DNA from: an uncultured Gammaproteobacteria bacterium
Lineage (GTDB): Bacteria; Patescibacteriota; Microgenomatia; UBA8517; UBA10165
DNA: 61,821 nucleotides
NCBI GenBank assembly: GCA_964472675.1
Contig: CAYYLO010000005.1
Coordinates: 1 to 61,821 of the forward strand
Reading direction: 5' to 3'
Shown here piece after piece: positions 4,961 through 29,702 of this stretch. Positions within the stretch are counted from its first letter, which is position 1; each line of letters begins with the position of its first letter. The notes under the pieces are model-generated. The model was not told where the DNA came from and did no database searches. It saw only the letters and a program-made list of their open reading frames with translations. The position numbers and the translations under genes were made by a program.

Positions 4961-6667
4961 TTAGCGCCTCTCGATATTAAAAAGCGGTCCGACGATTTGA
5001 ATATTTCCCGGCGCACGCAAATTGAAGAAAGTCTTAAACTCATCTCCCGAGAAAGTATCGGCTCCGGCATCTCCGGAAACGGAAACAGAGTTTGTTTTGC
5101 CCATACCAGTATCCCAATCAGAAACTGAAACGCTGCTTATAGAGTTGTATGGAGTAATTCCCCGCGAGGAAAGTTCCTGTTTGACTTTACCCTGGTCCCA
5201 AGTGTCACTGTCTGCTTTATCAGGTTGAGAAAGATGGGGTTGCGTCCCAGAATCGGCTTTGGCTAATTTTAAGCTGTTTACAATATCTGCAACCTCATCA
5301 CTTTTTAGCCAGGCGCTCTTGTTGTACTCTTTCCGGTAACCTTGAGCGGCATAAAAACAAGGCGAATCTTTGTCATAGGCTAGGCTGTTAAGATCCCCAA
5401 AGCTGCCCACGTCGCCTGATGTGTCTCGCATCCTTTTGGTCCAGGAAGTTGGGGACCACCCAATATCTGCAGAGGCCAGCTCATACCCGCCAAAAGTCGA
5501 AGCATACCATGCTGTAATCGGCGACCCTCCCGATGTTAGTATTTCTCCTTCGGTTGCCCTAACTGCCTGCTCCCAGTTTCCCCCGCGGTTTGAACCTTTG
5601 TAGACCTGGCAAGCCTGTGTTGTACAAATAGATTTTGCTCCCCCATTTGTGTAAGACCACGCATAAGAACGGGCAGCTACTGCCTGGGCCTTCAGAGCCT
5701 CAATCGGCCAATCCCCCGGCATTTCGGCAATACCTAAAAGATAAGTCTCCATAGTCAAATTCCCGTATCCATTGACCGAAATTGTAATATTGCCTTTATT
5801 CTCAAAACTTACACCCTGGTAATAAACATTTAAAATATCTTTATAATTTTGACCGGCTTTTGCCCTCCCATAAGCTCCATATTGATTTAAACCAACACGG
5901 TGCGGAATGCCATATGTATAGAAAGCAAAGCCTGGTGAAAATCCCGGGTCAATTTTTCTGTCATCCGTACACAACAAAGGACCGGCGCCTAAAGAGGTTG
6001 GCAGACGAAGACTAGCCAACTTTGCCGCAATTAAGTTTTTCTGCTTTTGGGTTAAACCTTGGATATATTTTTCAACCTTAGCCACTTCCCCTGCTAAAAA
6101 GTCCGCGTTTTTATTTAAAGAACTTTGGGCTGTTTGAAGAGAAGTTCGATTTTGAGTCAATGTCTGCTTATCCTTTTCCAAATCATTTATTTCCTGGGCA
6201 ATTTTTATAATATCCTGTTGGTCCTGGGCAATAACTCTTGAACGGATGGCAATTTGCTGTAAAAGATCTGTGGCTGTATCAGCTAGCAAAAATGGGACCA
6301 GAGGATCTTGTTGGCGCAAAACCATATAGTGGCGTTTAGTTTTTTCTTCAAACAACTGCTGGCGAACCGCCAAACTCGTTTCCCTGTCTTCTAGGTTTTT
6401 CTCAACCGTATCCAGCTGGCGCGACAGGCTACTTATTTTTGCGTTCAAGCTGTTTATTTTAGTACGAAGACTGGCCAGTTCTGCTTTGTTTTTATCATGC
6501 GCCGGCTTTATTTGGTCAATTTCTCTTTGAATCTGGTCAATTTGGCATTGAAAAGATTCGGCATTGTTGGCATTGGCGCAATCAGCATGCGCAGAAGAGG
6601 AAACAAAAAGCAAAAAACAAAAAGCAAAAATAGGAGTTAATAAAGACAGGTAAAATCGGTTTTTCAT
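4961..6667 (-). CDS. Secreted coiled-coil + SpoIID/LytB peptidoglycan hydrolase
   Basis: Signal peptide, long heptad region, EMPGDWPIEALKAQAVAARSYA, HRVGLNQYGAYGRA. Confidence 0.85.
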   Translation of the reverse strand: MKNRFYLSLLTPIFAFCFLLFVSSSAHADCANANNAESFQCQIDQIQREIDQIKPAHDKNKAELASLRTKINSLNAKISSLSRQLDTVEKNLEDRETSLAVRQQLFEEKTKRHYMVLRQQDPLVPFLLADTATDLLQQIAIRSRVIAQDQQDIIKIAQEINDLEKDKQTLTQNRTSLQTAQSSLNKNADFLAGEVAKVEKYIQGLTQKQKNLIAAKLASLRLPTSLGAGPLLCTDDRKIDPGFSPGFAFYTYGIPHRVGLNQYGAYGRAKAGQNYKDILNVYYQGVSFENKGNITISVNGYGNLTMETYLLGIAEMPGDWPIEALKAQAVAARSYAWSYTNGGAKSICTTQACQVYKGSNRGGNWEQAVRATEGEILTSGGSPITAWYASTFGGYELASADIGWSPTSWTKRMRDTSGDVGSFGDLNSLAYDKDSPCFYAAQGYRKEYNKSAWLKSDEVADIVNSLKLAKADSGTQPHLSQPDKADSDTWDQGKVKQELSSRGITPYNSISSVSVSDWDTGMGKTNSVSVSGDAGADTFSGDEFKTFFNLRAPGNIQIVGPLFNIERR

Positions 6668-6747
6668 CGATGCTTGATGTTTCTGCTTACTTAAGTATAC
6701 CAGCACAGTTACAGTCTAAGTTCGCAGTCCAAGTACAGGAGTTTGAA

Positions 6748-7113
6748 CTATTCTTTTAGTTCCGTGGTCAGTGGTGAAACATCTTCATCGTGCGCTCTCA
6801 AAACTACGATTTTCCCCGCCATATCTTCGTCTTTTCTAAGCAATCTATCAAACGCCAGTGTCAATGTAGAAGCCTTACTTTGTGGAACCTTTAGAAGAAC
6901 AACTGCGTAAATCGTGTTTTTTGCATAGTCTTCAAAATCAGAGTCGTTGGTAACCAAAACGCGCTTTTCTTTTTTAGAAATCGCTGCTAATTTGGAGTCT
7001 GGAGCTGATTTTGGCGCCAAGAGTACATCAAAACCGCCTGCTTTTAAAAAACGGGCAAGGTCAATTCTTACATTCTCATCGAGAAGAAATCGCCGATTGG
7101 GTGTTGACAACAA
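6748..7113 (-). CDS. DUF5615 family PIN-like toxin
   Basis: FLLDENV, RVLVTNDSDF. Confidence 0.85.
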   Translation of the reverse strand: MLSTPNRRFLLDENVRIDLARFLKAGGFDVLLAPKSAPDSKLAAISKKEKRVLVTNDSDFEDYAKNTIYAVVLLKVPQSKASTLTLAFDRLLRKDEDMAGKIVVLRAHDEDVSPLTTELKE

Positions 7114-7333
7114 CGTAACCTTCTCGAGTTATAGAACTGGCATAGTCAAGTGCAGCTTTTATATGTTTGGGGTTGAGCGCCGGGAAGGCTTCAATTATTT
7201 CCTTCTCTCCTGCCCCTTCAGCCAACATCTCCAAAACTTGCCAAACCATTATCCTCGTTCCTTTAAGTGTGGGCTTACCATGGCAAATTTTCGGATCAGC
7301 CACGATGTATTTATTAATTACAACTTTTTTCAT
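7076..7333 (-). CDS. DUF433 family antitoxin
   Basis: DPKICHGKPTLKGTRIMV...IKAALDYA; overlaps the toxin gene. Confidence 0.9.
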   Translation of the reverse strand: MKKVVINKYIVADPKICHGKPTLKGTRIMVWQVLEMLAEGAGEKEIIEAFPALNPKHIKAALDYASSITREGYVVVNTQSAISSR

Positions 7334-7430
7334 GCTTACATTGTAGCACAAAAATTCAAATCAGCTCGCAGAAAACGGGTCTATTGTGGTACACTTTGCA
7401 CAAACCTCTTCAAAAAGAGGGCCTGTTTGT

Positions 7431-8462
7431 ATGAAAAAAATATTATCTTCACTTTTTATTGCCCTGCTTCTCCTGTCTATTTGGTCACCAAGGCAAATTT
7501 ATGCTGCTACATGCACCTATGAATTTGAACCCAAAGGACCCACAGCCGACAGGCCAGTTAAATTTATTATTTCCAACCCAGAAGGTTTTAACCAGGCCGA
7601 TCGATATCGTTTGAGGCTGACAAATACTTTTGGGGCAGATGACTGGATATCGGGTTTCTTTACTCCAATTAATGGAAAACTTGAGTTCCAGGCGGGAGGA
7701 CGAAGGGATGAAACCAAGGCAGGCACACACACCATCTCTGTTCGTGCAGAATCAGACAATCAAGATAGATGCACTTTCACTTACACCATTAAACCTCAAG
7801 AGCAAGGATGTAATGTGGTAAGAGAACCCAAAGGACCTGGCGTAGGCCAGTCAGCAAAATTAACTTTTTCTAATCTTGCCTTAAAACAAGGCGTAAACGC
7901 CGGCTGGGGCAGATGGTTTGCAGAAATAACCCCCCGAAGTAGTGGCTCCATAAAGGCTGTCAACGAAAAAGCAGGCGGTGTCGAAGTGGTGACAGGAGAC
8001 TTCAAGTCAGAAGGTAGCTACACAGTTACTCTTAAAGGACGCAGTGGTCTAAGTACTAAGGTGTTCTGCCAAACCATAGTCCGTGTTGCCCAAAATCCTG
8101 GGGATCAGTCTGCTTACACACTACAGCCGGGCGAATCCCAACCCACCTCTCCCAGCGAAATTAAACGCTGTGGAGATGATAACTCGGGCCTTTCCACTGC
8201 GCTCGGCTGCATACCAGTTGGAGATACTAATTCTTTTGTTGGGTGGTTTTTGAAGTGGGCACTTGGAATTTCTGGAGGAGTAGCGTTTTTATTGATTATT
8301 TTCGCAGGGTTTCAAATTATGTCTTCGACAGGCAATCCGGATAAAATTCAAGGTGGGAAGGAGCTCCTAAACGCAGCGATATCCGGTTTAATTTTGATAA
8401 TCTTTTCTGTCTTCTTGTTAAAATTAATTGGAGTAGATATATTAGGTCTACCGGGATTCTAA
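7431..8462 (+). CDS. Secreted tandem Ig-like domains fused to a C-terminal T4SS pilin
   Basis: Signal peptide, two C..PKGP...C beta-rich repeats, TALGCIP and GFQIMSSTGNPDKIQGGKELLNAAISGL pilin motif. Confidence 0.75.
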   Translation: MKKILSSLFIALLLLSIWSPRQIYAATCTYEFEPKGPTADRPVKFIISNPEGFNQADRYRLRLTNTFGADDWISGFFTPINGKLEFQAGGRRDETKAGTHTISVRAESDNQDRCTFTYTIKPQEQGCNVVREPKGPGVGQSAKLTFSNLALKQGVNAGWGRWFAEITPRSSGSIKAVNEKAGGVEVVTGDFKSEGSYTVTLKGRSGLSTKVFCQTIVRVAQNPGDQSAYTLQPGESQPTSPSEIKRCGDDNSGLSTALGCIPVGDTNSFVGWFLKWALGISGGVAFLLIIFAGFQIMSSTGNPDKIQGGKELLNAAISGLILIIFSVFLLKLIGVDILGLPGF

Positions 8463-8464
8463 AA

Positions 8465-8803
8465 ATGGAACTTGCGCAAGCAGTTACACCAGCAATAAAT
8501 TTTGATGTCTTGCAAGACAACTTAAACCAAACAGGTTACAATCCCCAGTTGAACACGCTCGGTGGAATCGTGAGCGCTTTTGTACCTTATGTTTTTGGTC
8601 TGGCTGGTATAGTTTTGTTTCTTTACTTCATCTGGGGAGGGTTTGGAATCATGATGTCCCATGGTGATCCAAAAGCCACCGCCGCCGGAAAAGACAGGAT
8701 AACCCACGCCGTCATTGGCTTTGTAATTATTTTTGCTGCCTTTTGGATTGTGCAAATATTAGGCTTGATATTAGGCATTCCGCAGTTTAGAAATCTCTTT
8801 TAA
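8465..8803 (+). CDS. VirB2/TrbC-like T4SS pilin
   Basis: GGFGIMMSHGDPKATAAGKDRITHAVIGF between two TM helices. Confidence 0.8.
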   Translation: MELAQAVTPAINFDVLQDNLNQTGYNPQLNTLGGIVSAFVPYVFGLAGIVLFLYFIWGGFGIMMSHGDPKATAAGKDRITHAVIGFVIIFAAFWIVQILGLILGIPQFRNLF

Positions 8804-8829
8804 GTTTGTGATACAATCTGAAACCTGAC

Positions 8830-9609
8830 ATGGCAAAACCTACCCCGTCTCCAAACGGTGTTCCTAATCATGTGGCCATAATTATGGATGGCAACCGCCG
8901 CTGGGCTGCAAAACATGGACTTGGCGCAGTTGACGGACACAGGGTCGCTGCTGAAAAGACGATAAAGCCGGTTGTCGAACACGCCATAAAACGTGGGATT
9001 GGTCACCTAACTTTTTGGGCATTCTCTACAGAAAACCAAAAACGTGACACTCTCGAGCTTCAGGGACTTTTTAAAATCTTCCGGGATGCTTTAAAAACTA
9101 ACCTTTTGGAACTTGCGGAGTTGGGAGTTAAAATAAGAATAATAGGCAACATCGACTGGTTCCCAAAAGATATTGCCACATTGGCCAAAAAAATTGTTGA
9201 AAAAACCAGAGACAACAAAAAAATCACCGTTTCTTTTGCTCTAAATTATGGCGGTCGCGATGAAATCCTGCGGGCTATCTCCCGCCTTTTGGACAAAATC
9301 CAAACTCACAATCGCTCTGTAGAAACTCCTATAACTGAAGAGGAGTTTTCAAGCTACATGGATACCGCTGGCATACCTGATCCTGATCTGATTATTAGAA
9401 CCGGCGGGGACAAAAGGCTTTCGGGGTACTTCCCCTGGCAGGCGGTCTATAGCGAACTTTACTTTACAAAAACTTTGTGGCCTGATTTTTCGCCTTCAAA
9501 ATTTGAGTTGGCTTTGAAAAACTTTGCCCAACGCACCAGAAGATTCGGGAAAGGCAAGTTTATAGATTACCTCAAGAACGCAGCCAAAAAAGTGGCAGTT
9601 GGACATTAG
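8830..9609 (+). CDS. uppS: Undecaprenyl/polyprenyl diphosphate synthase
   Basis: HVAIIMDGNRRWA, AFSTEN, LNYGGRDEI, DPDLIIRTGG, RLSGYFPWQ. Confidence 0.97.
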   Translation: MAKPTPSPNGVPNHVAIIMDGNRRWAAKHGLGAVDGHRVAAEKTIKPVVEHAIKRGIGHLTFWAFSTENQKRDTLELQGLFKIFRDALKTNLLELAELGVKIRIIGNIDWFPKDIATLAKKIVEKTRDNKKITVSFALNYGGRDEILRAISRLLDKIQTHNRSVETPITEEEFSSYMDTAGIPDPDLIIRTGGDKRLSGYFPWQAVYSELYFTKTLWPDFSPSKFELALKNFAQRTRRFGKGKFIDYLKNAAKKVAVGH

Positions 9610-9617
9610 CCACACCG

Positions 9618-9699
9618 TGTCATTTCGAACGGAGTGAGAAATCTAGTTATTCTGCACTTCAACGAGATCTCTCGTCAGTTACACCTCCTCGAGATGACA
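9618..9699. mobile_element. Palindromic MITE/REP-like element
   Basis: Terminal inverted repeats TGTCATTTCGA...TCGAGATGACA with internal GAGAAATCT/AGATCTCTC. Confidence 0.75.
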
Positions 9700-9752
9700 A
9701 CTATCACCGCTTTTCTTGCAAAGCTACGCTTCTGCCTGATACACTTAGAACT

Positions 9753-10163
9753 GTGAAAATAATAAAAAGTAACTCGTCAGCTCGCAACATAGTAACTAGT
9801 TTCGCAAAGTGCACAATTGCCGCCCTCTTTACTCTAATCATTAATCACAAGTTACTAGTCACCTCTGCCTTAGCTGTCGATATAGGCGCCGAGTACAATT
9901 CTCCTGTAAAAAATATCACCGACATGGGAGGTTTGGTCTCGACCGTAGCCGGGAATCTTTATCTTATCGCCGGCGTTATAGTCTTCATCCTTTTCCTGTG
10001 GGGCGGGTTTGAATACATCCGTGGCGCAGGCTCTGATGACAGGGATGCCATTGGCCGCGGGAAAAAGATTATTTTCTCGGCAATTACCGGTTTCTTGATT
10101 ATCTTCGTCTCATATTGGATAATTCTACTTATTGAAATGTTGACCAACGTTAAAATATTTTAA
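9753..10163 (+). CDS. VirB2/TrbC-like T4SS pilin
   Basis: GGFEYIRGAGSDDRDAIGRGKKIIFSAITGF. Confidence 0.8.
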   Translation: MKIIKSNSSARNIVTSFAKCTIAALFTLIINHKLLVTSALAVDIGAEYNSPVKNITDMGGLVSTVAGNLYLIAGVIVFILFLWGGFEYIRGAGSDDRDAIGRGKKIIFSAITGFLIIFVSYWIILLIEMLTNVKIF

Positions 10164-10164
10164 T

Positions 10165-10680
10165 ATGAGAAATCTCATCTTTGCTTTGATACTCTTTTTA
10201 TCTATTGTCTTTTTTGGTGCATCTCCAGCTTTTGCTCAAGCAGGCAGTACCTTCGACAGCGAAGTGGAGTGTCGACTTTCCGGATGTTCAGGCACCTGTA
10301 ATGATATAACTGTGGGCGATCAACCCACGTTTGTCTGTTACACCTCCACTGGCGGGACTGGAGCTTTATTTGGAAAAATTAAACCACCCGCTAAAGTAAC
10401 TTCAGACGTTTCAGGCTTAGGTAATTTTATTGGCGCAATTTTAAGACTCTTAGTTATTGCTGGTGGAGTTTGGGCTCTGTTTAACTTTATAATTGCAGGG
10501 TATCAGTTCATTCAAGCCGGCGGGGATGCAAAAGCAGTTAGTGCCGCCTGGGCAAGAATTTGGCAAAGTCTTGTAGGTATAGTCATAATTGCTGCGTCTT
10601 TCCTGTTTGCAGCTATCATTGGGCAAATATTCTTTGGAAGTCCAACAGCAATTCTTTCGCCAAAACTTATAACACCATGA
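10165..10680 (+). CDS. VirB2/TrbC-like T4SS pilin with Cys-rich N-terminal extension
   Basis: Signal peptide, CRLSGCSGTC...C, AGYQFIQAGGDAKAVSAAWARIWQSLVGI. Confidence 0.8.
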   Translation: MRNLIFALILFLSIVFFGASPAFAQAGSTFDSEVECRLSGCSGTCNDITVGDQPTFVCYTSTGGTGALFGKIKPPAKVTSDVSGLGNFIGAILRLLVIAGGVWALFNFIIAGYQFIQAGGDAKAVSAAWARIWQSLVGIVIIAASFLFAAIIGQIFFGSPTAILSPKLITP

Positions 10681-11042
10681 TAGAACTAATCGCAGACACA
10701 AGCCTTGGAGAATTAAAAGGACTTGGTCCTTTGGGTGACCCCGCCTCCTTTTCAGAAGGCACAGGCGGACTTTTGGAGAAGTTATTGTCCAATATTATTG
10801 GCTTTTTAACTGTGGGGGCTATCTTGTGGTTTGTTGTTCAAATCGTCATTGGGGGTTACAGCTTAATGACAGCAAGCGGAGATCCTAAAGGAGCAGCTGA
10901 TGCAAGACAAGGGATCACAAATTCAATAATCGGGTTGGTTGTTGTTTTTGTAGCATTAATTTTTGTTTCCGTTATCGGATTCCTATTGGGGGTTGATGTT
11001 TTGAAAATTGGCGATTTTGTTAACAACTTAAGTATTAAATAG
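10677..11042 (+). CDS. VirB2/TrbC-like T4SS pilin
   Basis: GGYSLMTASGDPKGAADARQGITNSIIGL; ATGA overlap with the previous gene. Confidence 0.8.
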   Translation: MIELIADTSLGELKGLGPLGDPASFSEGTGGLLEKLLSNIIGFLTVGAILWFVVQIVIGGYSLMTASGDPKGAADARQGITNSIIGLVVVFVALIFVSVIGFLLGVDVLKIGDFVNNLSIK

Positions 11043-11049
11043 AACACAC

Positions 11050-11382
11050 ATGTACCTGGCAGATATCTCAAACCCAATAACACCTAGACTAAATCCTACA
11101 GCAGGAACTTCTGTTGGTTTGTTTAGCTCAGTCATTGCTGTAATTATCAAAACTCTATTTGTTGCCGGATTTGTACTATTTATCGTTTACTTTTTAATTG
11201 GAGGTCTGCAGTGGATTACATCCGCAGGAGATGCAAAAGCCCTTGAAAAAGCCCGCAATAGTGTAACCCAGGCAATTTTTGGCATTGTAGTTATGCTTGC
11301 CCTCTTTGCAATCATAAGGCTTATTGAAGCTGTCTTTGGCGTCAACATTTTACAAATTGATCTTGGCGCGATTAAAATATAA
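11050..11382 (+). CDS. VirB2/TrbC-like T4SS pilin
   Basis: GGLQWITSAGDAKALEKARNSVTQAIFGI. Confidence 0.85.
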   Translation: MYLADISNPITPRLNPTAGTSVGLFSSVIAVIIKTLFVAGFVLFIVYFLIGGLQWITSAGDAKALEKARNSVTQAIFGIVVMLALFAIIRLIEAVFGVNILQIDLGAIKI

Positions 11383-11407
11383 TTACATACGGTGAGGGGG
11401 TGAAAAC

Positions 11408-11806
11408 ATGACAAAACAAACTTTAAATTTTCTTTGGGCGTCTAGCGTAGCTTTGGCTCTTTCTGCAACACCAATTGCAGCTCAAGAATCAGCAAAAATT
11501 AATGTGGGTACAGGTGCTCCATCCACAACCGTTGCTAACCTAACAATTGGAGCAATCGTCTCAACAGCTATTAAAATTTTAGTCGTTGTTGCAGCTGTCT
11601 TGTTCTTCTTCTGGTTGGTATTAGGTGGTATTAAATGGATCACCTCAGGTGGAGATAAAAACAAAACCGAAGAAGCTCGCCAACAAATAACGTCAGCTTT
11701 GGTTGGTTTGGTTGTAGTCTTTTCAGCCTGGGCAATTGCCCAACTTATAAGGATATTGTTCGATGTCGACTTGTTCAATCTTACGATTAGCAGAGTTGGT
11801 GTCTAA
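11408..11806 (+). CDS. VirB2/TrbC-like T4SS pilin
   Basis: GGIKWITSGGDKNKTEEARQQITSALVGL; signal peptide. Confidence 0.85.
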   Translation: MTKQTLNFLWASSVALALSATPIAAQESAKINVGTGAPSTTVANLTIGAIVSTAIKILVVVAAVLFFFWLVLGGIKWITSGGDKNKTEEARQQITSALVGLVVVFSAWAIAQLIRILFDVDLFNLTISRVGV

Positions 11807-11904
11807 CAGCAAAAGTGATAGGGATTAGTGATAGCGATTTTAGGTGTCTATCCTGATCCCTTTCGCATTTTGCCCCATCGCTGCTTTTCTGATACACTTG
11901 CAAT

Positions 11905-12243
11905 ATGGCAAGCTGGTTGGGAACTGCATGTGTTGGCACAAAGATAAGCGACACAGTTGATGCGTCGGATGTCGCAACAATTGCTGGTTTGGAGTGCGCT
12001 TTTGGGAACGTCATTGGTGTCGTTTTGGCTCTTTCCGGTGTGGTAGTTTTCGTTACGTTTTTGATAGGAGGTTTTAAATATCTAACCTCAGGATCTGATC
12101 CAAAGGCAGTAGAATCAGCAAAACATACTCTAACAGCAGCCATTGCGGGGCTAGTTGTTTTGGTTTTGGCATTTGCGGTTTTATTGGTTATTCAAGCTGT
12201 AACAGGAGTGCAGGTAACTCAATTTAAAGTAACGACTCCATAG
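11905..12243 (+). CDS. VirB2/TrbC-like T4SS pilin
   Basis: GGFKYLTSGSDPKAVESAKHTLTAAIAGL. Confidence 0.85.
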   Translation: MASWLGTACVGTKISDTVDASDVATIAGLECAFGNVIGVVLALSGVVVFVTFLIGGFKYLTSGSDPKAVESAKHTLTAAIAGLVVLVLAFAVLLVIQAVTGVQVTQFKVTTP

Positions 12244-12254
12244 GAATGGAGTAA

Positions 12255-12310
12255 TTTCTAATTTTCAATTTACAATTTTCAATCAATTATCAAATTACAA
12301 TTTTTAAATT
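12255..12310. repeat. AT-rich 7-mer (AATTTTC-like) microsatellite
   Basis: aatttct aattttc aatttac aattttc ... aaattac aattttt. Confidence 0.7.
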
Positions 12311-12321
12311 AGAAACTCTTC

Positions 12322-13431
12322 ATGATCCGCTTCTTATCATTCTTATCACTATTTCCCTTCTTTTTGATTCTGTTCACACAAACCACGCACGCTGCTGATA
12401 CTACTCCCGATTCTTATGGAACCGAAAAGGGCCAGCAGCTATTTAGCCCTGAAAACGCCCAGAAATTAATTCCTTATAAAGGAGATTCTCCAACCATTGC
12501 TGACTTCGGAAAATCTGCGGAGTTTTTCCGTGACTCAACCAATGCCTATGCTCCCACACCCTCTCCCCAAGCACAAATTGATCCAAACTCTAAAGTGTTA
12601 GGCAGTTCCATTTTTGAAAACTTCTTTAATGCCCTCAGGGGTCTGTTTGATGAAGTTTTCGCCAGGCTTTTTTCTGGCGGCATACCTTTCTTTGGGACTA
12701 TTTACACCAATGGAACAAATGCTCCTAAGCTGACCGAAACAGAAGAAACAAAGAACGAGTTTAACCGCGGAGTTGACGAATATATCGACTCACTAAACCC
12801 ATTCAACGCTAATCCCTTCAGAATAACCTCAGGAATCGCCTCAGCCTTCAATATGCAATCCGAAAATCTTAAGGGAATCATAAATAGTGCAGCCGAAGCA
12901 ACTGAAGTTCCAGCCCCTCTTTTATTGGCTATCTCCCAAACCGAAGCCCCGGGAGCTTTTAGCTACACAGATGAGGACGTGAAGTTTTTTAGCACGGACA
13001 ATTGGTGGGCTGGTTCGCCATACGACACCCTCAAAAAGGGGTATTGCTACAATACCTGTTCTGATCCGTCATTGGGTTGTCCAAACAACGACGTCCGTGG
13101 AGCAACACAATTCGAGGCCGCCACATGGAGAAGTTTAATAAACGATAACGCCTCTCGTGGTTTAGTAGGTATCCAAAGCGTGTTGCAATCAAAATTTGGA
13201 TTGAACAAGACCATCACTGCCGACGACCGGTGTAATGTGGCTGCAGCTTTTGTTGGCACAGCTGTTAAAATAAAAAGGGACGCCGGAGCAACACCAGCTT
13301 GGGACGAGCCAACTATAAGAAAGGTTGCTGGGGCCTACTGTGGAACATGCAACCCAAGTCGTGCGTGTGGGCCTGATTACTGTGGAACCGTATGGAGGCT
13401 TTTTAAGTCATATTCTTCCCAATCACAATGA
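12322..13431 (+). CDS. Secreted lytic transglycosylase/lysozyme-like protein (VirB1-like)
   Basis: Signal peptide; VPAPLLLAISQTE (catalytic Glu position), GATQF, AYCG. Confidence 0.65.
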   Translation: MIRFLSFLSLFPFFLILFTQTTHAADTTPDSYGTEKGQQLFSPENAQKLIPYKGDSPTIADFGKSAEFFRDSTNAYAPTPSPQAQIDPNSKVLGSSIFENFFNALRGLFDEVFARLFSGGIPFFGTIYTNGTNAPKLTETEETKNEFNRGVDEYIDSLNPFNANPFRITSGIASAFNMQSENLKGIINSAAEATEVPAPLLLAISQTEAPGAFSYTDEDVKFFSTDNWWAGSPYDTLKKGYCYNTCSDPSLGCPNNDVRGATQFEAATWRSLINDNASRGLVGIQSVLQSKFGLNKTITADDRCNVAAAFVGTAVKIKRDAGATPAWDEPTIRKVAGAYCGTCNPSRACGPDYCGTVWRLFKSYSSQSQ

Positions 13432-13838
13432 AATACCTTACTGCCATAGGCCAGTTTTTTACCAGGAGTAAAAAAAGAATTGCTGTCTTGTTGATTGTTA
13501 TCTTGTTAGCAGCAGGCTATGTGTTTACCAGCAACAACCAGGCTCCCGCTACACAAACCACCTCACCTCTTCCAACACCAACCAAAGCCCTAACCATACA
13601 GGAACAAAACGCTTTACAGCAAAACAAGCAGCGTTTAATTTCTCAACTGCCCTTCAGTTCGGAGCAATTCACAGTCCAGTACTTCCCTGACCAGGACTAT
13701 TTCTTAATCTCTATTCAGAGGCAGCCATACGAAAATAATAAAGCCTTAGCGGAAAGTTGGATGAGACAAAATGGAGTTGATCCAGGGTATGTAACAATCC
13801 AATGGAGCGCCGTCCGCGGCGCCGGCCCCAGACAATAA
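13428..13838 (+). CDS. Bitopic membrane protein, hypothetical
   Basis: TM IAVLLIVILLAAGYVF, Thr/Pro linker, small alpha/beta domain; ATGA overlap. Confidence 0.7.
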   Translation: MKYLTAIGQFFTRSKKRIAVLLIVILLAAGYVFTSNNQAPATQTTSPLPTPTKALTIQEQNALQQNKQRLISQLPFSSEQFTVQYFPDQDYFLISIQRQPYENNKALAESWMRQNGVDPGYVTIQWSAVRGAGPRQ

Positions 13839-13864
13839 CCAGTTTTCGTCCGCGGCTTCGCTCC

Positions 13865-14233
13865 CTAACGAAGAGGAACCAGTCTCACTTCAAGCTTGGC
13901 ATTGAGTGCCCTTGCAACTTTTTCTAAAGTTTTGTGGGTATAGCCTGTATAGTCCGCTGCTTCAATCCGAGCAATGTTGGATTGAGTAGTTCCAACCAAT
14001 TTTGCCAACTGCGTTTGAGTAAGACCCGCTTTTTTGCGAAGATCATAAATCTGAAGAGCAATACCCCAAGCAGCCCCTGCTTGGTCAAGCTCGTACTGAA
14101 AAGCAGGATCCTCCTTGAGAATTTTTTCTATTGTTCTATCAAGATCGTCTTTTTTTCTTTTCATTTTCCTCCTTGTGATAAACTCTACTTCTAAGTTCAA
14201 GTTGTCCTGGTAGTAACTAATTTCAAATTCCAT
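13865..14233 (-). CDS. XRE/HigA-like HTH regulator (possible alternative start at 14164)
   Basis: LRKKAGLTQTQLAKLVGTTQSNIARIE. Confidence 0.9.
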   Translation of the reverse strand: MEFEISYYQDNLNLEVEFITRRKMKRKKDDLDRTIEKILKEDPAFQYELDQAGAAWGIALQIYDLRKKAGLTQTQLAKLVGTTQSNIARIEAADYTGYTHKTLEKVARALNAKLEVRLVPLR

Positions 14234-14238
14234 AGTGG

Positions 14239-14258
14239 TTATATCAAAGTTGATATAA
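14239..14258. promoter_or_regulatory. Operator-like inverted repeat inside the XRE promoter
   Basis: TTATATCAA-AG-TTGATATAA; minus-strand TTGACA (14260-14265) and TATAAC (14238-14243) flank and overlap it. Confidence 0.65.
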
Positions 14259-14351
14259 ATGTCAAGAAGTGCAATTGATTTTTAAGGTGGTTTTTTGACA
14301 AGTTACTTAGTATGGTATATGCTTGTTTTTAGGCTAAACCATATTAAGTAT

Positions 14352-15314
14352 ATGTCGTACTTATCCAAAATATTGATTGATAGAATAGAAAGCAAACTAA
14401 AATTTCTTCAGAAACTAAGGCCTTTGCCCCCTTCTGCCGTAAAAAAACTCCAAGAACAGTTTGAAATTGAAATGACTTACAACTCAAACGCCATCGAGGG
14501 AAACAGCCTTACTCTAAAAGAAACTTATCTTGTTATCCAAGAAGGTTTAACTATAAAAGGAAAACCCCTTAAAGACCATCTAGAAGCAAAAGATCATCAT
14601 GAGGCTTTGGAATTTTTGCATGAGACCGTCGAACACGGCTCGCAACCAACCCTCTCTGAGCACTTAATACGAACGCTCCATCAAATCGTTATGAAGAAAA
14701 CCGACGAAGAGTATGCAGGAAAATATAGGAATAGCAAGGTTTTTATAGGAGGAGCCGATCATGTTCCTCCCGACGCGCTTCTCGTACCGAAACAGATGCC
14801 TGATCTTATTCGTTGGTTTTCCAAAAACATAAAGCGCCTTCACCCAATAGAACTTGCAGCTCTGTTGCACCACAAACTCGTTTACATACATCCATTTTTT
14901 GACGGAAACGGCCGGACAGCACGATTAGTTATGAATATTATACTGATGAAGGCCGGATATCCGTTGGTTATTATACTGAAAAACGATAGAAAAAAATACT
15001 ATCGAGCTTTAAGCCAAGCAGATAGCGGAAAATATTCTCTTCTCGTTCAAGTTATTGCTCAAGCAGTAGAACGTTCTCTGAATATTTACTTAAAGACCCT
15101 TACACCAATAAACCAACGCAGGGAAAAGTTTGGTTCGCTTAGGCAGATGAGTAGAAAAGCTCCATATTCAACTAAATATTTAAACTTGTTAGCGCGAACT
15201 GGCAAGCTTGAAGCCCACAAACAAGGCCGAAATTGGTTAACAAGCTATGAGGCAATTAGAAGATATATTGGCCAAAGAGAAAGAGCACGAAAATTTGTTA
15301 GATTGAAAAAGTAA
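14352..15314 (+). CDS. Fic family protein (N-terminal inhibitory motif) with C-terminal HTH
   Basis: SNAIEGN, HPFFDGNGRTAR, LARTGKLEAHKQGRNWLT. Confidence 0.92.
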   Translation: MSYLSKILIDRIESKLKFLQKLRPLPPSAVKKLQEQFEIEMTYNSNAIEGNSLTLKETYLVIQEGLTIKGKPLKDHLEAKDHHEALEFLHETVEHGSQPTLSEHLIRTLHQIVMKKTDEEYAGKYRNSKVFIGGADHVPPDALLVPKQMPDLIRWFSKNIKRLHPIELAALLHHKLVYIHPFFDGNGRTARLVMNIILMKAGYPLVIILKNDRKKYYRALSQADSGKYSLLVQVIAQAVERSLNIYLKTLTPINQRREKFGSLRQMSRKAPYSTKYLNLLARTGKLEAHKQGRNWLTSYEAIRRYIGQRERARKFVRLKK

Positions 15315-15357: not shown

Positions 15358-16770
15358 ATGAAACTCTTCAAGCCTGCTCGCAATCTAATTCGCAGCGTTG
15401 CCCGCCACCCAAAGTTTTTTGTCTTTATTCTTTTCTGTGCTCTTGTGGCCGCCCCCGCAGCCTATGCCCAATATTCTCTGGATACCCACCAAGAAGCCCT
15501 CAATGCATCTGGACAGAATTTACAAAAATTTTCTGAGCAAAATTTTGCTGGTTTTGTTAATTCAGTCAACACCGCTTTACTTGGCTGTCCGAAATGTAAC
15601 GACTCAGACCTAAAAGTAGGAGTAATGCCATTTACCGTAAATATGATTGCTGGGTTGTACAGCAATCCCCCTGCTTCAGGGATTGCTTATCTTGACGATG
15701 TGGCCCAACGTTTTAATCCAGTTCGCCCAGCTTATGCCCAAACAGGTACTGGTTTTACTGGACTAGCACCACTTCTACCTCTGTGGAAAGCATTTAGAGA
15801 TTTTGCATATGCGTTTTTTGCCATATTATTTGTAGGAATTGGCTTAGCCATAATGTTCCGCATGAAGCTAGATCCTCGAACCGTATTGACCATTCAATCT
15901 GCCATACCAAGAATCGTTATTGCTCTATTACTTGTTACTTTTTCTTACGCAATTGCAGGCTTAATGATTGATCTTTTATATGTAATGATATCCTTAGCAA
16001 TTCTCATATTTGGTCGAGCCGGAGCCGACGTACCTCATTTTCAAGAAATGTACCTAACTGGGGGATTTGGAGCTTTGTGGGGAAGCTTGTGGGGAGTTGT
16101 TGGAGGAGGAAAAACAGCCGTAGTTTCAGGGCTTACTTCAATTGCTGGCCTTTTAGGTTTTTTGCTTTTACCAACTATTCCTGTTCTCTCGGGTGCATTG
16201 TTTGGAATTGGCTTAGGTGCCGGTTTATTTTTGTTGCTTTTAGTCGTCATAATAATTTATGTTCTTTTCAAAATTTTTATGGATCTACTTCGAGCATATA
16301 TTGGTATTATTATTGCTGTGGTGTTGGGCCCTCTCCAGATAGCTTTAGGTGTTATACCAGGCTTCCCGGGGTTCGGGTCTTGGCTGAAAGGGCTCTTTAC
16401 TAATGTATTAATCTTTGTTGGTGTAGCATTTGTACTAATGTTGGGTCAAACCATAATTGGTTTAGGTTTTGCAACTAACCTTTGGCACCCTCCTTTGTTG
16501 GTAGGAGGCGGATTAGTTGGAACTGTTATTCCCGTGCTTATCTCTATTGGAATTCTCCAAATAGTTCACCAAGTCCCCGAGGCAGTCAGACAAATAATGG
16601 CTGGAAGACCGCCCGAATTTGCACCTGGCCAAGCAGTAAATACACTTGTTGGATCACCTGCATCTGGAGCAATGGAGGATAGAGCTAGAAGATCAACTGG
16701 GTTCTTTGAAGCTGCTGCTTGGAGAGTTGGAGGAGGAATTTTGGGAAGCGGGGGGGGTCGGAGAAGATAA
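15358..16770 (+). CDS. Polytopic membrane protein, VirB6/TrbL-like
   Basis: LWKAFRDFAY...IPRIVIALLLVTFSYAIAGLMID, many TMs, YIGIIIAVVLGPLQIALGVIPG, Gly-rich tail; T4SS context. Confidence 0.65.
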   Translation: MKLFKPARNLIRSVARHPKFFVFILFCALVAAPAAYAQYSLDTHQEALNASGQNLQKFSEQNFAGFVNSVNTALLGCPKCNDSDLKVGVMPFTVNMIAGLYSNPPASGIAYLDDVAQRFNPVRPAYAQTGTGFTGLAPLLPLWKAFRDFAYAFFAILFVGIGLAIMFRMKLDPRTVLTIQSAIPRIVIALLLVTFSYAIAGLMIDLLYVMISLAILIFGRAGADVPHFQEMYLTGGFGALWGSLWGVVGGGKTAVVSGLTSIAGLLGFLLLPTIPVLSGALFGIGLGAGLFLLLLVVIIIYVLFKIFMDLLRAYIGIIIAVVLGPLQIALGVIPGFPGFGSWLKGLFTNVLIFVGVAFVLMLGQTIIGLGFATNLWHPPLLVGGGLVGTVIPVLISIGILQIVHQVPEAVRQIMAGRPPEFAPGQAVNTLVGSPASGAMEDRARRSTGFFEAAAWRVGGGILGSGGGRRR

Positions 16771-16795: not shown

Positions 16796-18853
16796 TTATG
16801 TGTCAGGATCCAATCCAACCTTAGAACGAAACCACTTTCTAAAACCAACACCCGCTTTCATGGGACCACCTAACTCACGCGCTACTCCCCTCACCCCATA
16901 CAACTCTCGTCTTAGCCTGCTAGATTGAGCCCTTTCATCCTCTATTGATATCCTTGAAGGATCCATAAGCCTATCCTTCGTTGCGTCAGAAAGCTTTCTC
17001 TTGACGTCAAGTATACCAGCGTCTTTGTCCATTGTCTTTCTTATAGCTTCAAGCCTTTCACCGTAACGCAACCTACCTCCCTCGGGTCCTCGACCGCTCC
17101 TGTAAGCATTTATGGTATTTACAAGGTCTTCTAACCTCTTGTAATCTGCCCAATCACGCCTATCTTTGCCTGATGGGTATCGAGCTCCAATTAACGCACT
17201 TGCAAACTCATCAATACCGTAATTTGCCAACACTCTATCTAAACGATCTCCGGTTTGTGTATCAGAATTTCTCTCGATTATTGGCCTTATGTCGGAGTAT
17301 TCTAAATCTCCTGTCCGTGTTTGAGGATCATATAGCTTACCGTACAACTCTTTAAACTTTTCGTTTTGATGAGGAAATCCGAAATACCTAAATATGGTAT
17401 AAGCCAATCTTACTACGCCTTTATCTGTCCCAACAGCTTGTTGAACAGCTAAAAGATAGGCATCTATCTCTTGGTTTGTAATACCAATATCACCCTCTCC
17501 GCGATAGTTTGTACCCCTGCCACCTAACACATCAGAAAATCTATGGGTTGTTCCTTCAAGTATGTAAGAAGAAGAGTGTTCAGCATATATATAATTGTTG
17601 TTTCTCCCAACTCGTCTCAAACCTGGAATAATAGTAGTGGGGTCTTCATATTCTCCTTCCGCCCCACCTTCCCTGTGAACTCTATAACCTTGAAGTTGGA
17701 ATAATAGAGACAGGCACCTTCTTGTCTCCGAATCAGCCCTCAACCAAGTACCTATTCCCCCAGGAAAAGGACCTTGTTGTTCAATGTGTGCAGCCACATC
17801 ATCAATGCGGCTGGAATCCATAGTAAAGTTAAGCAAGATCAACCTTTGCATGGTATCGTAACTTAAGCGAAATAGTCGGTCGCGGGAAGCTCGTAAAACC
17901 AAATTAAGTTCGGCAGCAATCGCGTCAGTACGACCTCCATCCATAACATCGCTTAAAACCTGAAAGGACCTGACATCCAATGGAATTCCCTGATAATCGT
18001 TTGCGCCGATCAAATCAGGCAACTGGTGAAGTCGAGCCCACCGTCTCGAGAAAGTACTCCCATTTGAGGGGTCAGGTTCGTCTACTCTCCACTCGATTCG
18101 GCGTACAGCATAAGTTCTATCAATATCTGGTTGTGCTCCCCCCGGATTGGCGGGTTGTGGTTCCGAGCGAGCTGCCCGAGCGGCTTCCGCCGCAAGCCTC
18201 CTTTGTTCTTCGATAAACGCTCTCTGTTCCTCAGCCGCTTGGCGTTGGGCTTCTGCTGCCGCCAGTTGAGCTTCTCTTACTCTTGCCGCTTCTTCATCCC
18301 GCACGGGTGGTCTGGCTGGCTCGGGTTCTGTAACCCTCGCTGCAGCTGCTTCAGGAATAAGTTTCTGCCACTTCCAAGATTCGTCTGTATATCTTTCTAA
18401 TTCTTCCTCGGGAATGGTTCCTGGTTCAGCACGATTGTACATTTCCTGCATAACTCGCTGGAGTCCATGTTCATACCTCCATCCTGCCAACCCTTCAAAA
18501 AGAGTTCTGTTGGCGCCATTCAAGGTGAGTGAGCTAGCACGATCTATTTGTGCGGATCTGTCCATTTTTTCAGAAATTGCCAGCGCTTGGCTGGGAAGGT
18601 CGGGCAAGGTTGCAATTTCTGCCGCATCCGCATCTAACTGTCGGTCACCAATAACAAACAATCGTAAACTTTCTGCACGAGCTGCAAGTCTAGAACGTTC
18701 ATCAATAAGCTGACTTCTCCTCTCGCGGTCAGCAATTGTGGGAGCAGCACTTGCTTCTACTGCATCAATTTCACCTTGGACGACTCTAAAAGGACGAAGC
18801 TCAACCCGATCTACTGCAGCCTCGCGGGGTGCTCCTGGTATTTCTGGTGCCAT
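16796..18853 (-). CDS. Hypothetical 685-aa soluble protein with E/A/R coiled coil
   Basis: Long ORF, TATAAT 7 nt upstream of the ATG, no recognised family. Confidence 0.75.
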   Translation of the reverse strand: MAPEIPGAPREAAVDRVELRPFRVVQGEIDAVEASAAPTIADRERRSQLIDERSRLAARAESLRLFVIGDRQLDADAAEIATLPDLPSQALAISEKMDRSAQIDRASSLTLNGANRTLFEGLAGWRYEHGLQRVMQEMYNRAEPGTIPEEELERYTDESWKWQKLIPEAAAARVTEPEPARPPVRDEEAARVREAQLAAAEAQRQAAEEQRAFIEEQRRLAAEAARAARSEPQPANPGGAQPDIDRTYAVRRIEWRVDEPDPSNGSTFSRRWARLHQLPDLIGANDYQGIPLDVRSFQVLSDVMDGGRTDAIAAELNLVLRASRDRLFRLSYDTMQRLILLNFTMDSSRIDDVAAHIEQQGPFPGGIGTWLRADSETRRCLSLLFQLQGYRVHREGGAEGEYEDPTTIIPGLRRVGRNNNYIYAEHSSSYILEGTTHRFSDVLGGRGTNYRGEGDIGITNQEIDAYLLAVQQAVGTDKGVVRLAYTIFRYFGFPHQNEKFKELYGKLYDPQTRTGDLEYSDIRPIIERNSDTQTGDRLDRVLANYGIDEFASALIGARYPSGKDRRDWADYKRLEDLVNTINAYRSGRGPEGGRLRYGERLEAIRKTMDKDAGILDVKRKLSDATKDRLMDPSRISIEDERAQSSRLRRELYGVRGVARELGGPMKAGVGFRKWFRSKVGLDPDT

Positions 18854-18913: not shown

Positions 18914-20272
18914 ATGGCTGAAACTGCTCCAATATCCGAAGGTCCAAGACCAGAAATTAGCCCTTTTGACAGCTTAAGAAAAAATTTTGGTGCAGCTGCT
19001 CGACAGATAAGAGGAATTGAGAGTGGGAACGAAGCCGAAATGCGCGCAGCTGTTCACGATCCTGAAGTTTGGAAAAAGACATTTCAACGTCTAGCCGTCC
19101 CGGGAGAAAGTGTGGATACTTGTCATCAAAATTACTGTAGGGAACTTGCCCAGACAGCCGTGCAACTTGGAGCCAGTAATGAACAAGTTCAAAGCTTTGA
19201 AAGTTTTTTAGGGCTCCCCGAGGGGAAAATTGATTACTATTCGGCTTTTATGGATGCTACGAGTTGGCAAAAAGCTGCCACTGGCGGAACCCCGGGTGGC
19301 GTAGAAAGAAAAGCTGAACCAGTTGATCTTTTTCAAGCACACCCACCCGAAACTGGAGAAAAACTGCCGCGCTATAGAGATAGAGATGAGCAAATTGCTT
19401 ACAGAACTTACCAGGAAGCCTGGAACCCCAACCCGTTAATGGCAAACCGTGTTGATAACTGGTTTGAGAACGAACGGGCCAGGTTAAGAGCGCGCGGTGA
19501 AGTAGGACAATCTTCTGAAAAAAGAGAAGTAAGGCCTCCATTGAGGTGGTTGTTGGATGAAATTAATACGTCACTGAAAGATAGAAATGTCGACCTAAAC
19601 GACCGTACACAAGTTGAGGCTCAAATAAGAAACGAAGCATTTTGGCTGGGAACTCCTGAGAGCTTTTGGGAAAAACTGGCAGTAGGTTCTAAGCAAAGGC
19701 CGGAGGATTTCCAGGAGGAAAAATGCAGGGAAGTTTTAGAAGATATCCGAACAAGGAGAGGAGGGCATGACGATAGAGCCGAACTGCGCACCCTATTTGG
19801 GCTGCCCCCAGGTTACAGGTTTGATCTTTATGATTTAATTGACATAACAAATGGTTTTATCACCAACTCCCAACTTGTGGAACAAGAGGCTCGCCAATCA
19901 AGTGCCGCCAGCCAGATACCTACATCAGAAGTACCAATTCAAGAACTGATTAATCAAGGAGACAAAGATGACAGTACCCCAAGAAGATGGCAGAGATTCC
20001 GTGGCTCACTCAACCCCTTGGGTGGCGCCACTATGGCTACCCAAATCACTACACCAGAAGAGCCTGAAGCAGTCCAGGTGGAAGAGGTTGAGACACCTGT
20101 GGCCAGTGAAGGTTTAACTGGTGGCCTTCGCGAAGCGTTCCAAAAAGCGCAACAAGAACAAGCCCGGGAAGATAAGACTGGCAACAATGATAAAAGAGCG
20201 CAAAGAAGACAAAAGAGAGACGAACAGATCCGCCGCGCCCGAGAGCTCCGCAGAAAATACAGCGGCGGGTAA
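18914..20272 (+). CDS. Hypothetical 452-aa charged protein with Arg-rich C-terminus
   Basis: Long ORF, no TM or signal, no recognised family. Confidence 0.75.
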   Translation: MAETAPISEGPRPEISPFDSLRKNFGAAARQIRGIESGNEAEMRAAVHDPEVWKKTFQRLAVPGESVDTCHQNYCRELAQTAVQLGASNEQVQSFESFLGLPEGKIDYYSAFMDATSWQKAATGGTPGGVERKAEPVDLFQAHPPETGEKLPRYRDRDEQIAYRTYQEAWNPNPLMANRVDNWFENERARLRARGEVGQSSEKREVRPPLRWLLDEINTSLKDRNVDLNDRTQVEAQIRNEAFWLGTPESFWEKLAVGSKQRPEDFQEEKCREVLEDIRTRRGGHDDRAELRTLFGLPPGYRFDLYDLIDITNGFITNSQLVEQEARQSSAASQIPTSEVPIQELINQGDKDDSTPRRWQRFRGSLNPLGGATMATQITTPEEPEAVQVEEVETPVASEGLTGGLREAFQKAQQEQAREDKTGNNDKRAQRRQKRDEQIRRARELRRKYSGG

Positions 20273-20395
20273 TTCCCGTGTTTTGTGAAAAATCCTCCGA
20301 GTTGCAAACCCGTTTTCATATGTTAAGTTTGAAATAGAGAGACTTTTGAAGTATATTGTTTAACTCTCCTGGTTTTGCTTGATTTTTATACCCTT

Positions 20396-21367: not shown

Positions 21368-21406
21368 AATTTACAATGTAAATTGGAAATTGAGAATTGA
21401 AAATTA
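21366..21406. repeat. 7-mer (AATTGAA-like) microsatellite
   Basis: aattgga aattgag aattgaa aatt; reverse complement of the 12255 tract type. Confidence 0.7.
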
Positions 21407-21411
21407 TTTAT

Positions 21412-29605: not shown

Positions 29606-29702
29606 GTTTTGTTTCCACATTAAAGAGTTATCCACAATTAGTGTCAACCCCTAAAAAGGACGAAACGCTCCCTGTTGTTTTACACGACATTGTTGTGTAA
29701 AA
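29581..29702. promoter_or_regulatory. DnaA-box cluster upstream of dnaA
   Basis: TTTTCCACA 29581, GTTTCCACA 29611, TTATCCACA 29628, TGTGTAAAA 29694. Confidence 0.75.

Follow-up and report, generated by a model that had tools for sequence, protein, structure and literature searches.

The eight-gene array and its protein family

The stretch of DNA analysed here (the window) covers positions 1–61,821 of contig CAYYLO010000005.1 of assembly GCA_964472675.1 and is a chromosome segment of Candidatus Blackburnbacteria (Microgenomatia, Patescibacteria). Between positions 7431 and 12243 it carries eight co-directional open reading frames (ORFs) on the plus strand, named p1 to p8 below, each of which ends in a two-helix hairpin whose best family match is a pilin family of type IV secretion systems (T4SS). 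A preliminary description of this DNA had placed eight divergent VirB2-like pilin paralogues in this interval, and the eight ORFs are found exactly there. None of them is a pseudogene. Identical gene calls are obtained on the public contig JACPKD010000044 (L001, GCA_016187265.1), which is 99.8% identical to the window across 6.9 kb. The nearest genome is Candidatus Blackburnbacteria RIFCSPHIGHO2_01_FULL_43_15b (87% identity in UppS), and the homologues of p1 are annotated as Blackburnbacteria, Woesebacteria or Microgenomates. The array is split into two plus six genes by uppS, on which the preliminary description was silent. Throughout, 'VirB2-like' is a label for architecture and presumed function and not for demonstrated family membership.

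p1, 7431–8462, plus strand: 343 amino acids (aa); signal peptide, two tandem Ig-like domains (about residues 27–121 and 128–220), a Cys-bounded loop and a C-terminal VirB2-like hairpin (residues 266–332); position-1 orthogroup.
p2, 8465–8803, plus strand: 112 aa; minimal hairpin with an acidic N-tail and without signal peptide; starts 2 nt past the p1 stop.
uppS, 8830–9609, plus strand: undecaprenyl-diphosphate synthase (PF01255, E = 3.5e-71; TIGR00055), between p2 and p3.
p3, 9753–10163, plus strand: 136 aa, GTG start; hairpin with a signal-peptide-like N-terminus.
p4, 10165–10680, plus strand: 171 aa; signal peptide, short 4-Cys head, then the hairpin; position-4 orthogroup.
p5, 10677–11042, plus strand: 121 aa; minimal hairpin; its ATG overlaps the p4 stop (ATGA).
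p6, 11050–11382, plus strand: 110 aa; minimal hairpin.
p7, 11408–11806, plus strand: 132 aa; signal peptide and hairpin; the clearest Shine-Dalgarno sequence of the array (GAGGGGGTGA) lies upstream.
p8, 11905–12243, plus strand: 112 aa; minimal hairpin; last-position orthogroup; first gene of the third putative transcription unit.

In line with the preliminary description, PF18895 (T4SS_pilin, gathering threshold 26.6 bits) is the best Pfam match for all eight proteins. Four score above the threshold (p2 46.4, p7 43.2, p5 40.2 and p8 33.3 bits) and four below it (p1 25.6, p3 22.9, p6 20.3 and p4 18.0 bits). The latter are linked to other copies by BLASTP with E-values of 1e-8 to 1e-20: p4 matches its paralogues with E = 1e-9 to 1e-12, and p6 matches p7 and p8 with E = 4e-20 and 4e-19. 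Orthologues of p1 in other genomes exceed the threshold (27–33 bits). Pairwise identity among the eight paralogues is 24–44%. A hidden Markov model (HMM) of the eight cores, run against 532 six-frame ORFs of the window, finds exactly these eight and no ninth copy (next E = 1.6). The family profile of the eight cores matches 89,303 cluster representatives at E ≤ 1e-3; this pilin family is therefore very large.

Hydropathy and the AlphaFold2 (AF2) models show two hydrophobic helices joined by a short charged loop, and a conserved region extends over the first transmembrane (TM) helix, the loop and the second TM helix. In our alignment (A1) the loop consensus reads G-G-F-x-x-I-T-S-x-G-D-P-K-A-x-x-x-A-K-x-x-I-T-x-A-I-x-G, and the motif given in the preliminary description approximates this real conserved region. 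Taken literally, that motif fits p1, p2, p3 and p5 in full and its second half fits seven of the eight proteins; slightly relaxed, it fits six. The N- and C-tails vary between the copies.

The heads had been described as Ig-like, Cys-rich or minimal, which is correct according to AF2 models, Foldseek and the sequences. The AF2 model of p1 (predicted local distance difference test score, pLDDT, 83) consists of two tandem beta-sandwich domains followed by the hairpin (H266–298/H303–332). The head retrieves single-chain variable fragment (scFv)/diabody, FN3-tandem and bacterial adhesin folds in Foldseek, with E-values of about 1e-6 to 1e-5. The p4 head has four Cys within about 50 residues, and the other six proteins have minimal heads. 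The model of p2 (pLDDT 80) is a plain helical hairpin (H28–63 and H69–103). Signal-peptide-like N-termini are present on p1, p3, p4 and p7. The N-tails of p2, p5, p6 and p8 are short and neutral to acidic, and the inter-helix loops contain 2–5 K/R. Under the positive-inside rule, these features and the AF2 model would fit hairpins with both termini outside (N-out/C-out) and a cytoplasmic basic loop, as in VirB2-type pilins.

Positional orthology, conservation and variation

Positional orthology was measured in 12 nine-copy loci, with the HMM match columns as the basis of comparison. Identity between genomes is 54.4% at the same position (n = 594) and 27.2% at different positions (n = 4752), and paralogues within a genome share 27.8%. 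Same-position identity far exceeds different-position identity, so the duplications predate the sampled Microgenomatia lineages. Recent tandem duplication was considered and rejected, as the within-genome value equals the between-genome value for different positions.

Reciprocal best hits place the paralogues of the window at the matching position in other genomes (21 loci). p1 pairs with position 1 in nearly all 21 loci, p4 with position 4 in 21/21 when a shift of one position is allowed for an extra or missing copy, and p8 with position 9. The orthogroup assignment of p3, 84% identical to its orthologue in the sister genome L002 (GCA_001816385.1), is the least certain among the eight. Positions 7 and 8 are a younger pair (49.9% identical) which both map to p7, and this accounts for eight copies here against nine elsewhere. 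p7 shares 44.7% identity with position 8, whose own conservation between genomes is 67.5%. As the orthologue of the most conserved positions (7/8), p7 is a candidate for the major subunit. The comparison indicates that the copies are ancient positional orthogroups which have been retained in order.

The layout was compared in 80 loci retrieved via UppS, among which 43 Patescibacteria loci were scored for uppS linkage. At least 20 Microgenomatia loci contain a large pilin, a small pilin and uppS, with 6–7 further pilins nearby; the taxa include Collier-, Woese-, Gottesman-, Chisholm-, Beckwith- and Shapirobacteria. The preliminary description had looked to copy-number variation for signs of a varied pilus, and the 8–9 copies prove stable and collinear across lineages. 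Pilins lie within about 1–2 kb of uppS, in either orientation, in about 33 of the 43 Patescibacteria loci, and the loci of the UppS set from outside the candidate phyla radiation (CPR) have no pilin genes beside uppS. It is specifically the pair at positions 1 and 2 to which uppS is attached; elsewhere in Microgenomatia this pair is separated from the other pilins and even inverted. A polyprenyl synthetase lies between uppS and position 3 at one locus (L006, 10931–12022), an AA-kinase-family (IPK-like) protein and NUDIX proteins lie upstream at another (L024, 7738–9799), and in a further Blackburnbacteria genome (L082) an rve-type insertion sequence is found between uppS and p3. A uppS/isoprenoid linkage is absent from the published T4SS survey (PMC12102498). 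It may reflect a lipid or glycan tie to pilus assembly or synteny alone.

Among the top profile matches, many public proteins fuse 2–17 pilin units in one polypeptide, as in P0121 with 17 units in 1775 aa. One two-unit fusion was confirmed on the NCBI contig MHCQ01000017 (L085, 6001–6660), and five independent fusions have a unit of the position-1 type in front of two further units. Following the Rosetta-stone argument, multi-pilin fusions suggest that different paralogues work together in fixed ratios. Some fusion junctions carry an AxA motif directly after the second helix ("VAYA|Q", "PAYA|D"), at which signal peptidase might, speculatively, cut the polyprotein into single pilins.

Relative to L002, the ratio of nonsynonymous to synonymous substitution rates (omega, dN/dS) is 0.06–0.49 for seven of the eight array genes. 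The value of p8 (0.71) rests on two amino-acid differences (synonymous rate dS 0.011), as p8 lies in a near-identical tract. These values indicate that all eight genes are under purifying selection; the diversification of copies for which the preliminary description had proposed a dN/dS analysis does not appear outside the p1 head. In three Blackburnbacteria genomes, p2–p8 are as conserved as uppS and SpoIID: their identity to L002 is 78–98% (UppS 87%, SpoIID 88%), and for the third congener, L082, it is 74–93% (UppS 92%). The window differs from the public contig by 16 single-nucleotide polymorphisms (SNPs), all in p7 and 15 of them synonymous.

p1 behaves differently in its two parts. Compared with L002, its head shows 34% and its anchor 95% identity; in L082, a 300-residue head without detectable similarity sits on a 90%-identical anchor. 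Across Microgenomates the anchor keeps 55–70% identity while the total length ranges from 188 to 528 aa. Judged from these alignments, the tandem Ig-like head of p1 is the sole hypervariable or swapped part of the array. Repeats, silent cassettes and invertible segments were searched for in 7000–12600, and only weak codon-level similarity at the loop motif was found.

A tract of the window at about 11600–15314 is nearly identical to L002: p8, orf369, orf136, a helix-turn-helix (HTH) gene and a Fic gene have dS values of 0–0.025, while the flanks have 0.65–1.9. It looks like the result of a recent recombination or transfer with its left edge inside p7. This edge is the place where the public contig L001 ends, with the 16 SNPs clustered there.

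Putative expression units and the secretion-system neighbourhood

The array genes are closely spaced, with gaps of 2 nt (p1/p2), 1 nt (p3/p4) and 7 nt (p5/p6). The ATGA overlap of p4 and p5 indicates translational coupling, and the spacing points to several array genes being coupled in this way. uppS is probably co-transcribed with p1 and p2. About three putative co-directional expression units can be delimited: p1–p2–uppS, p3–p7, and p8 onward. The nonamer TGNTACACT(T) occurs in exactly three copies in the 61.8 kb, all on the plus strand and at the heads of the sub-operons starting with p1, p3 and p8. It looks like an extended -10 element:

TGGTACACT, 7387–7395, plus strand: extended -10-like motif upstream of p1.
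TGATACACT, 9737–9745, plus strand: extended -10-like motif, with the p3 GTG starting 7 nt after its end; -35-like TTGCAA 17 bp upstream.
TGATACACT, 11890–11898, plus strand: extended -10-like motif, with the p8 ATG starting 6 nt after its end; -35-like TTGCCC 17 bp upstream.

The motif is found at the same three places in L002 and is not kept in other genera. Since the start codons follow it so closely, the p3 and p8 mRNAs may be leaderless. A generic sigma-70 scan gave weak matches only and missed the TGnTACACT motif, and an Rfam scan of 6500–13500 found no structured RNAs. Between the p8 stop and the orf369 start, an AT-rich imperfect palindrome/tandem repeat (12255–12315; AATTTTCAATTTACAATTTTCAA / AATTATCAAATTACAATTTTTAA) may serve as operator or terminator.

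The array lies about 17–22 kb from dnaN (26903–28003) and dnaA (28238–29647), close to which the cumulative GC skew has its minimum (about 28–30 kb), and it adjoins a monoderm-type T4SS. In order, the genes 3' of the array encode a secreted 369-aa protein, a 136-aa membrane protein, an HTH–Fic pair and orf470. After orf470 come two highly charged proteins, a PrgI/VirB3-like protein, a 219-aa conserved protein, the VirB4 ATPase and an M23 hydrolase. The main T4SS features are:

orf470, 15358–16770, plus strand: signal peptide and polytopic membrane protein (multiple TM segments by hydropathy).
PrgI/VirB3-like protein, 20375–21367, plus strand: PF12666 PrgI, 30.5 bits (gathering score 27).
orf219, 21397–22056, plus strand: conserved T4SS accessory protein upstream of VirB4; 28% identity (E = 6e-23) to the Pontibacillus gene at the same place.
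VirB4-like ATPase, 22064–23938, plus strand: PF19044 TraG P-loop (E = 8.9e-27), AAA_10/PF12846; 37% identity to a Pontibacillus CD1110-family VirB4.
M23 peptidoglycan hydrolase, 23957–25903, plus strand: functional analogue of VirB1 (PF01551, E = 3.9e-16).

VirB4, the PrgI/VirB3-like protein and the cell-wall hydrolase are thus clustered, and a core resembling the FATA class of mating pair formation systems (MPF-FATA) is present. The preliminary description was right in seeing paralogous T4SS-pilin-family hairpins beside a T4SS: the PF18895 matches, the BLASTP links and these neighbours agree. Topology and position alone make orf470 a candidate for the VirB6/PrgH-like assembly platform. It has no Pfam match and is 60% identical in L002 and 53% in L082; VirB6 is reported in the T4SS literature to be hard to detect in Microgenomatia. 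Pfam searches at a relaxed E-value gave nothing useful for orf369, orf470, orf685, orf452 and orf219. Compared with the small pilins, orf369, orf136, orf470, orf685 and orf452 are diverging far more quickly (36–60% identity). A Pfam search of 40 ORFs of the 61.8-kb window, including every ORF of at least 500 aa, found no coupling protein (VirD4) and no relaxase; the cargo is therefore more likely to be protein or other molecules traded with the host than conjugative DNA.

A module of the same order is found on a Pontibacillus megaplasmid (L083): two tandem pilin-like genes, a large polytopic protein, a small VirB3-like protein, an orf219 homologue, VirB4 and an M23 hydrolase. This order agrees with the published derivation of the Patescibacteria T4SS from the monoderm MPF-FATA class. 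A plasmid search with p2 gave Pontibacillus as its single match, and such proteins are therefore rare on sequenced plasmids.

Several other genes of the region deserve mention. The two charged proteins inside the T4SS cluster (16796–18853, minus strand; 18914–20272, plus strand) are R/E-rich, have no TM segment and no family match, and lie in a GC-richer stretch (0.48 vs about 0.42). No other genes of the locus diverge as fast as these two (36% and 52% identity to L002), which could be effectors or cytoplasmic accessory factors. Toxin–antitoxin-like pairs flank the array, namely DUF433 with DUF5615/Mut7-C (6748–7351, minus strand) and the HTH–Fic pair (13865–15314). In L082 the same two spots are occupied by different pairs, MNT/HEPN (5055–5919) and CopG/BrnT (14278–14824). 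Further away, a very large ORF (53469–58985, 1838 aa) with three DUF5667 stretches probably encodes a CPR surface protein. A transfer-messenger RNA (tmRNA) gene (1191–1557, tag GTDYSAARVTTYAYAYA) adjoins smpB (507–1082); both are ordinary housekeeping genes, and their synteny is kept in L082.

Possible assembly, related systems and rival explanations

Arrays of this type have been described. The T4SS cluster of S. epibionticum contains a pilin series which is essential (Wang et al. 2023, PMC10633639), and arrays of 2–11 pilin genes with an average identity of 25% are widespread in Patescibacteria (Quinonero-Coronel et al. 2025, PMC12102498). The latter survey includes the sister genome L002 in its dataset, singles out Microgenomatia as rich in such arrays and offers host adaptation as a speculation; a 2025 review repeats the array findings and floats a pilus in a monoderm. 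An array is defined in the survey as at least two pilin genes, in tandem or one non-pilin gene apart, in a Patescibacteria genome with VirB4; here there are eight genes with one interruption (uppS), and VirB4 is encoded at 22064–23938. The locus is like the S. epibionticum cluster (SEML1_0006–0019) and the surveyed arrays in the PF18895 family, the monoderm-type T4SS partners, the origin-proximal chromosomal site and the lack of a relaxase or coupling protein nearby. No essential difference is apparent, and the locus is an instance of this class. Both the feature and the interpretation given in the preliminary description are already in print (2023–2025): the recognition was correct and is not a discovery.

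Also related are the systems of PrgF(B2) of pCF10 and of the Mbov_0395-family pilin-like proteins (conjugative elements of Bacillota/Mycoplasma). They share the two-TM hairpin with a short charged loop and the gene order, in which the hairpin genes immediately precede those for VirB6-, VirB3- and VirB4-like proteins and for a cell-wall hydrolase. Of the NCBIfam families, NF045849 alone is matched, and all its matches are sub-threshold. These systems differ in that they have 1–2 copies and reside on mobile elements which carry a coupling protein and a relaxase and move DNA, whereas the present locus has eight chromosomal copies and no DNA-transfer genes were found in the 61.8-kb window. PrgF is an essential VirB2-like protein; in the published model it forms a pilus that stands on a VirB6 pentamer and whose lumen is lined by the loop (bioRxiv 10.64898/2025.12.18.695078).

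The VirB2 arrays of Rickettsiales (Anaplasma, Ehrlichia) and the TrwL arrays of the Bartonella Trw system are also tandem sets of divergent VirB2-type genes in T4SS devoted to host interaction and not to conjugation. However, they belong to diderm MPF-T systems, encode canonical PF04956 pilins and have been read as a means of surface variation; in the window the PF04956 test fails, and the copies are ancient orthogroups under purifying selection. The minor-pilin sets of type IV pili and of type II secretion system pseudopili likewise consist of fixed, co-transcribed, divergent paralogues with one assembly domain and one large variable adhesin. Their fold and machinery are unrelated (a single N-terminal helix with a globular domain, PilB/PilD), and the likeness would be a functional analogy.

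On balance, we lean towards the reading that the eight genes provide a fixed heteromeric set of VirB2-like (PF18895) subunits for a chromosomal, origin-proximal MPF-FATA-like T4SS, in which p1 would serve host recognition and the subunits would form a filament. The ancient paralogues would then be a non-redundant set, co-expressed from about three units with internal translational coupling. Extraction of pilin hairpins from the membrane and their polymerisation on a platform are established for VirB2/TraA and have recently been argued for PrgF of pCF10. If these two cases serve as models, the hairpins would leave a membrane pool and polymerise on a VirB6-like platform, for which orf470 is the candidate, with VirB4 as the motor. 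The product might be one short heteromeric tube or pilus which passes through the wall in the direction of the host bacterium; the conserved loop would border its lumen, and the variable N- and C-tails would point outward. p1 would display its fast-evolving, swappable Ig-like head on a conserved anchor as the host-recognition or adhesin subunit, a role taken elsewhere by VirB5 or minor pilins, and the seven small paralogues could act as shaft, initiation or adaptor subunits. The cargo would not be conjugative DNA.

A bolder version of this reading seems possible rather than probable. It supposes a single, obligately heteromeric conduit built from a fixed set of 8–9 place-specific subunits and capped or decorated by the position-1 subunit, whose head close relatives would exchange to retarget hosts; some lineages would make the set from a polyprotein of 2–17 units. 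We know of no type IV secretion pilus in which a major-plus-minor-pilin architecture is combined with a VirB5-substitute adhesin on a pilin anchor.

A number of points weigh against a VirB2-like subunit set. Heteromeric assembly, a tip role of p1 and the assignment of orf470 as VirB6 are all inferred. To our knowledge, no filament has been observed for any Patescibacteria T4SS. p2, p5, p6 and p8 have no signal peptide, unlike classical VirB2 prepilins. The canonical VirB2/TrbC family PF04956 gives 20.9 bits at best (p2, E = 4.3e-4; cutoff 27.9), hhalign of A1 against R388 TrwL gives a probability of 0.1, and a profile search of PDB sequences returns designed helical proteins and a viral glycoprotein and no pilin. 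Because these three tests are negative, the genes are not filed as canonical VirB2, and direct homology to the diderm VirB2 was rejected. The p2 hairpin has no Foldseek match at E ≤ 0.001; its best pilin, the A. pernix conjugation pilin 8dfu, ranks 4 among generic hairpins (E = 2.4, probability 0.75, TM-score 0.54/0.69). Fold alone therefore cannot settle membership.

Some of these results lend themselves to a rival explanation, in which the proteins are not filament subunits at all and the PF18895 'pilin' label is a misnomer here; they would be membrane-resident channel or gating parts of the T4SS, or loosely related small proteins. The absence of a pilus sighting, the four proteins without signal peptide and the failed direct tests against VirB2 (PDB profile search, hhalign) would fit this picture. 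The fold is generic, with Foldseek ranking the ATP-synthase c-subunit and complex I subunits similarly to pilins, and the NCBIfam relative, the Mbov_0395 family, stems from integrative and conjugative elements of the wall-less Mycoplasma. However, the hairpins agree with VirB2-type pilins in their loop and helix pattern and in their topology (N-out/C-out, basic loop in), and p2 retains a sub-threshold TrbC match (E = 4e-4). In labelling experiments PrgF, the monoderm homologue by architecture, behaves as a pilus subunit that lines the lumen (bioRxiv 10.64898/2025.12.18.695078), and the tandem Ig-like head of p1, with its 230 residues, is easiest to understand if it is displayed away from the membrane. 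We consider this explanation unlikely, although it has to be taken seriously.

The preliminary description had proposed a combinatorial or antigenically varied pilus for recognising different hosts or avoiding phage, and its two parts fare differently. Heteromeric assembly is plausible in view of the fused multi-pilin genes. The array as a repertoire, in which alternative major pilins would be used singly or in changing mixtures against hosts or phage, is in our view quite improbable. The paralogues are indeed very divergent (24–44% identity), their presumed outward-facing tails differ, three separate promoter-like elements could permit differential expression, and the VirB2 paralogue arrays of Bartonella and Anaplasma have been so interpreted (cited in PMC12102498). 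However, the copies diverged long ago and in a position-specific way, even distant Microgenomatia show a stable copy number and order, and omega (0.06–0.49 in seven of eight) and congener identities equal to those of housekeeping neighbours speak for constraint. p3–p7 are tightly packed or overlapping and are therefore expressed together; repeats, silent cassettes and invertible segments are lacking, fused multi-pilin genes force a fixed stoichiometry, and variation is confined to the p1 head. Positional orthology, stable layout, purifying selection, coupling and the lack of switch repeats contradict antigenic variation as the reason for eight copies. That p1–p2–uppS, p3–p7 and p8 onward are separate sets for different life-cycle stages, such as swarmer and attached cells, is very improbable: two Blackburnbacteria genomes have the three promoter-like motifs in common, the position 1–2 pair stands apart or even inverted in other Microgenomatia and Saccharibacteria have distinct attached and motile stages (PMC11665869), but all three motifs are one sequence, which suggests co-regulation over differential control, units of the position-1 type are found fused to units from other positions, and no regulator has been identified.

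With respect to the cited array literature (PMC10633639, PMC12102498), the present analysis adds the position-by-position orthology, the finding that variability is limited to the p1 head and the uppS/isoprenoid linkage, which are without mention there, and it also adds the multi-pilin fusions; the overall added value is modest. Patescibacteria, which live attached to host cells, account for a large part of bacterial diversity. Their T4SS, essential together with its pilin series in the one species tested, has a function which has been called "completely unknown" (PMC11665869). If the eight proteins are fixed parts of one machine, the question moves from pilus variation to the role of each part, and the p1 head would be the obvious candidate for host specificity.

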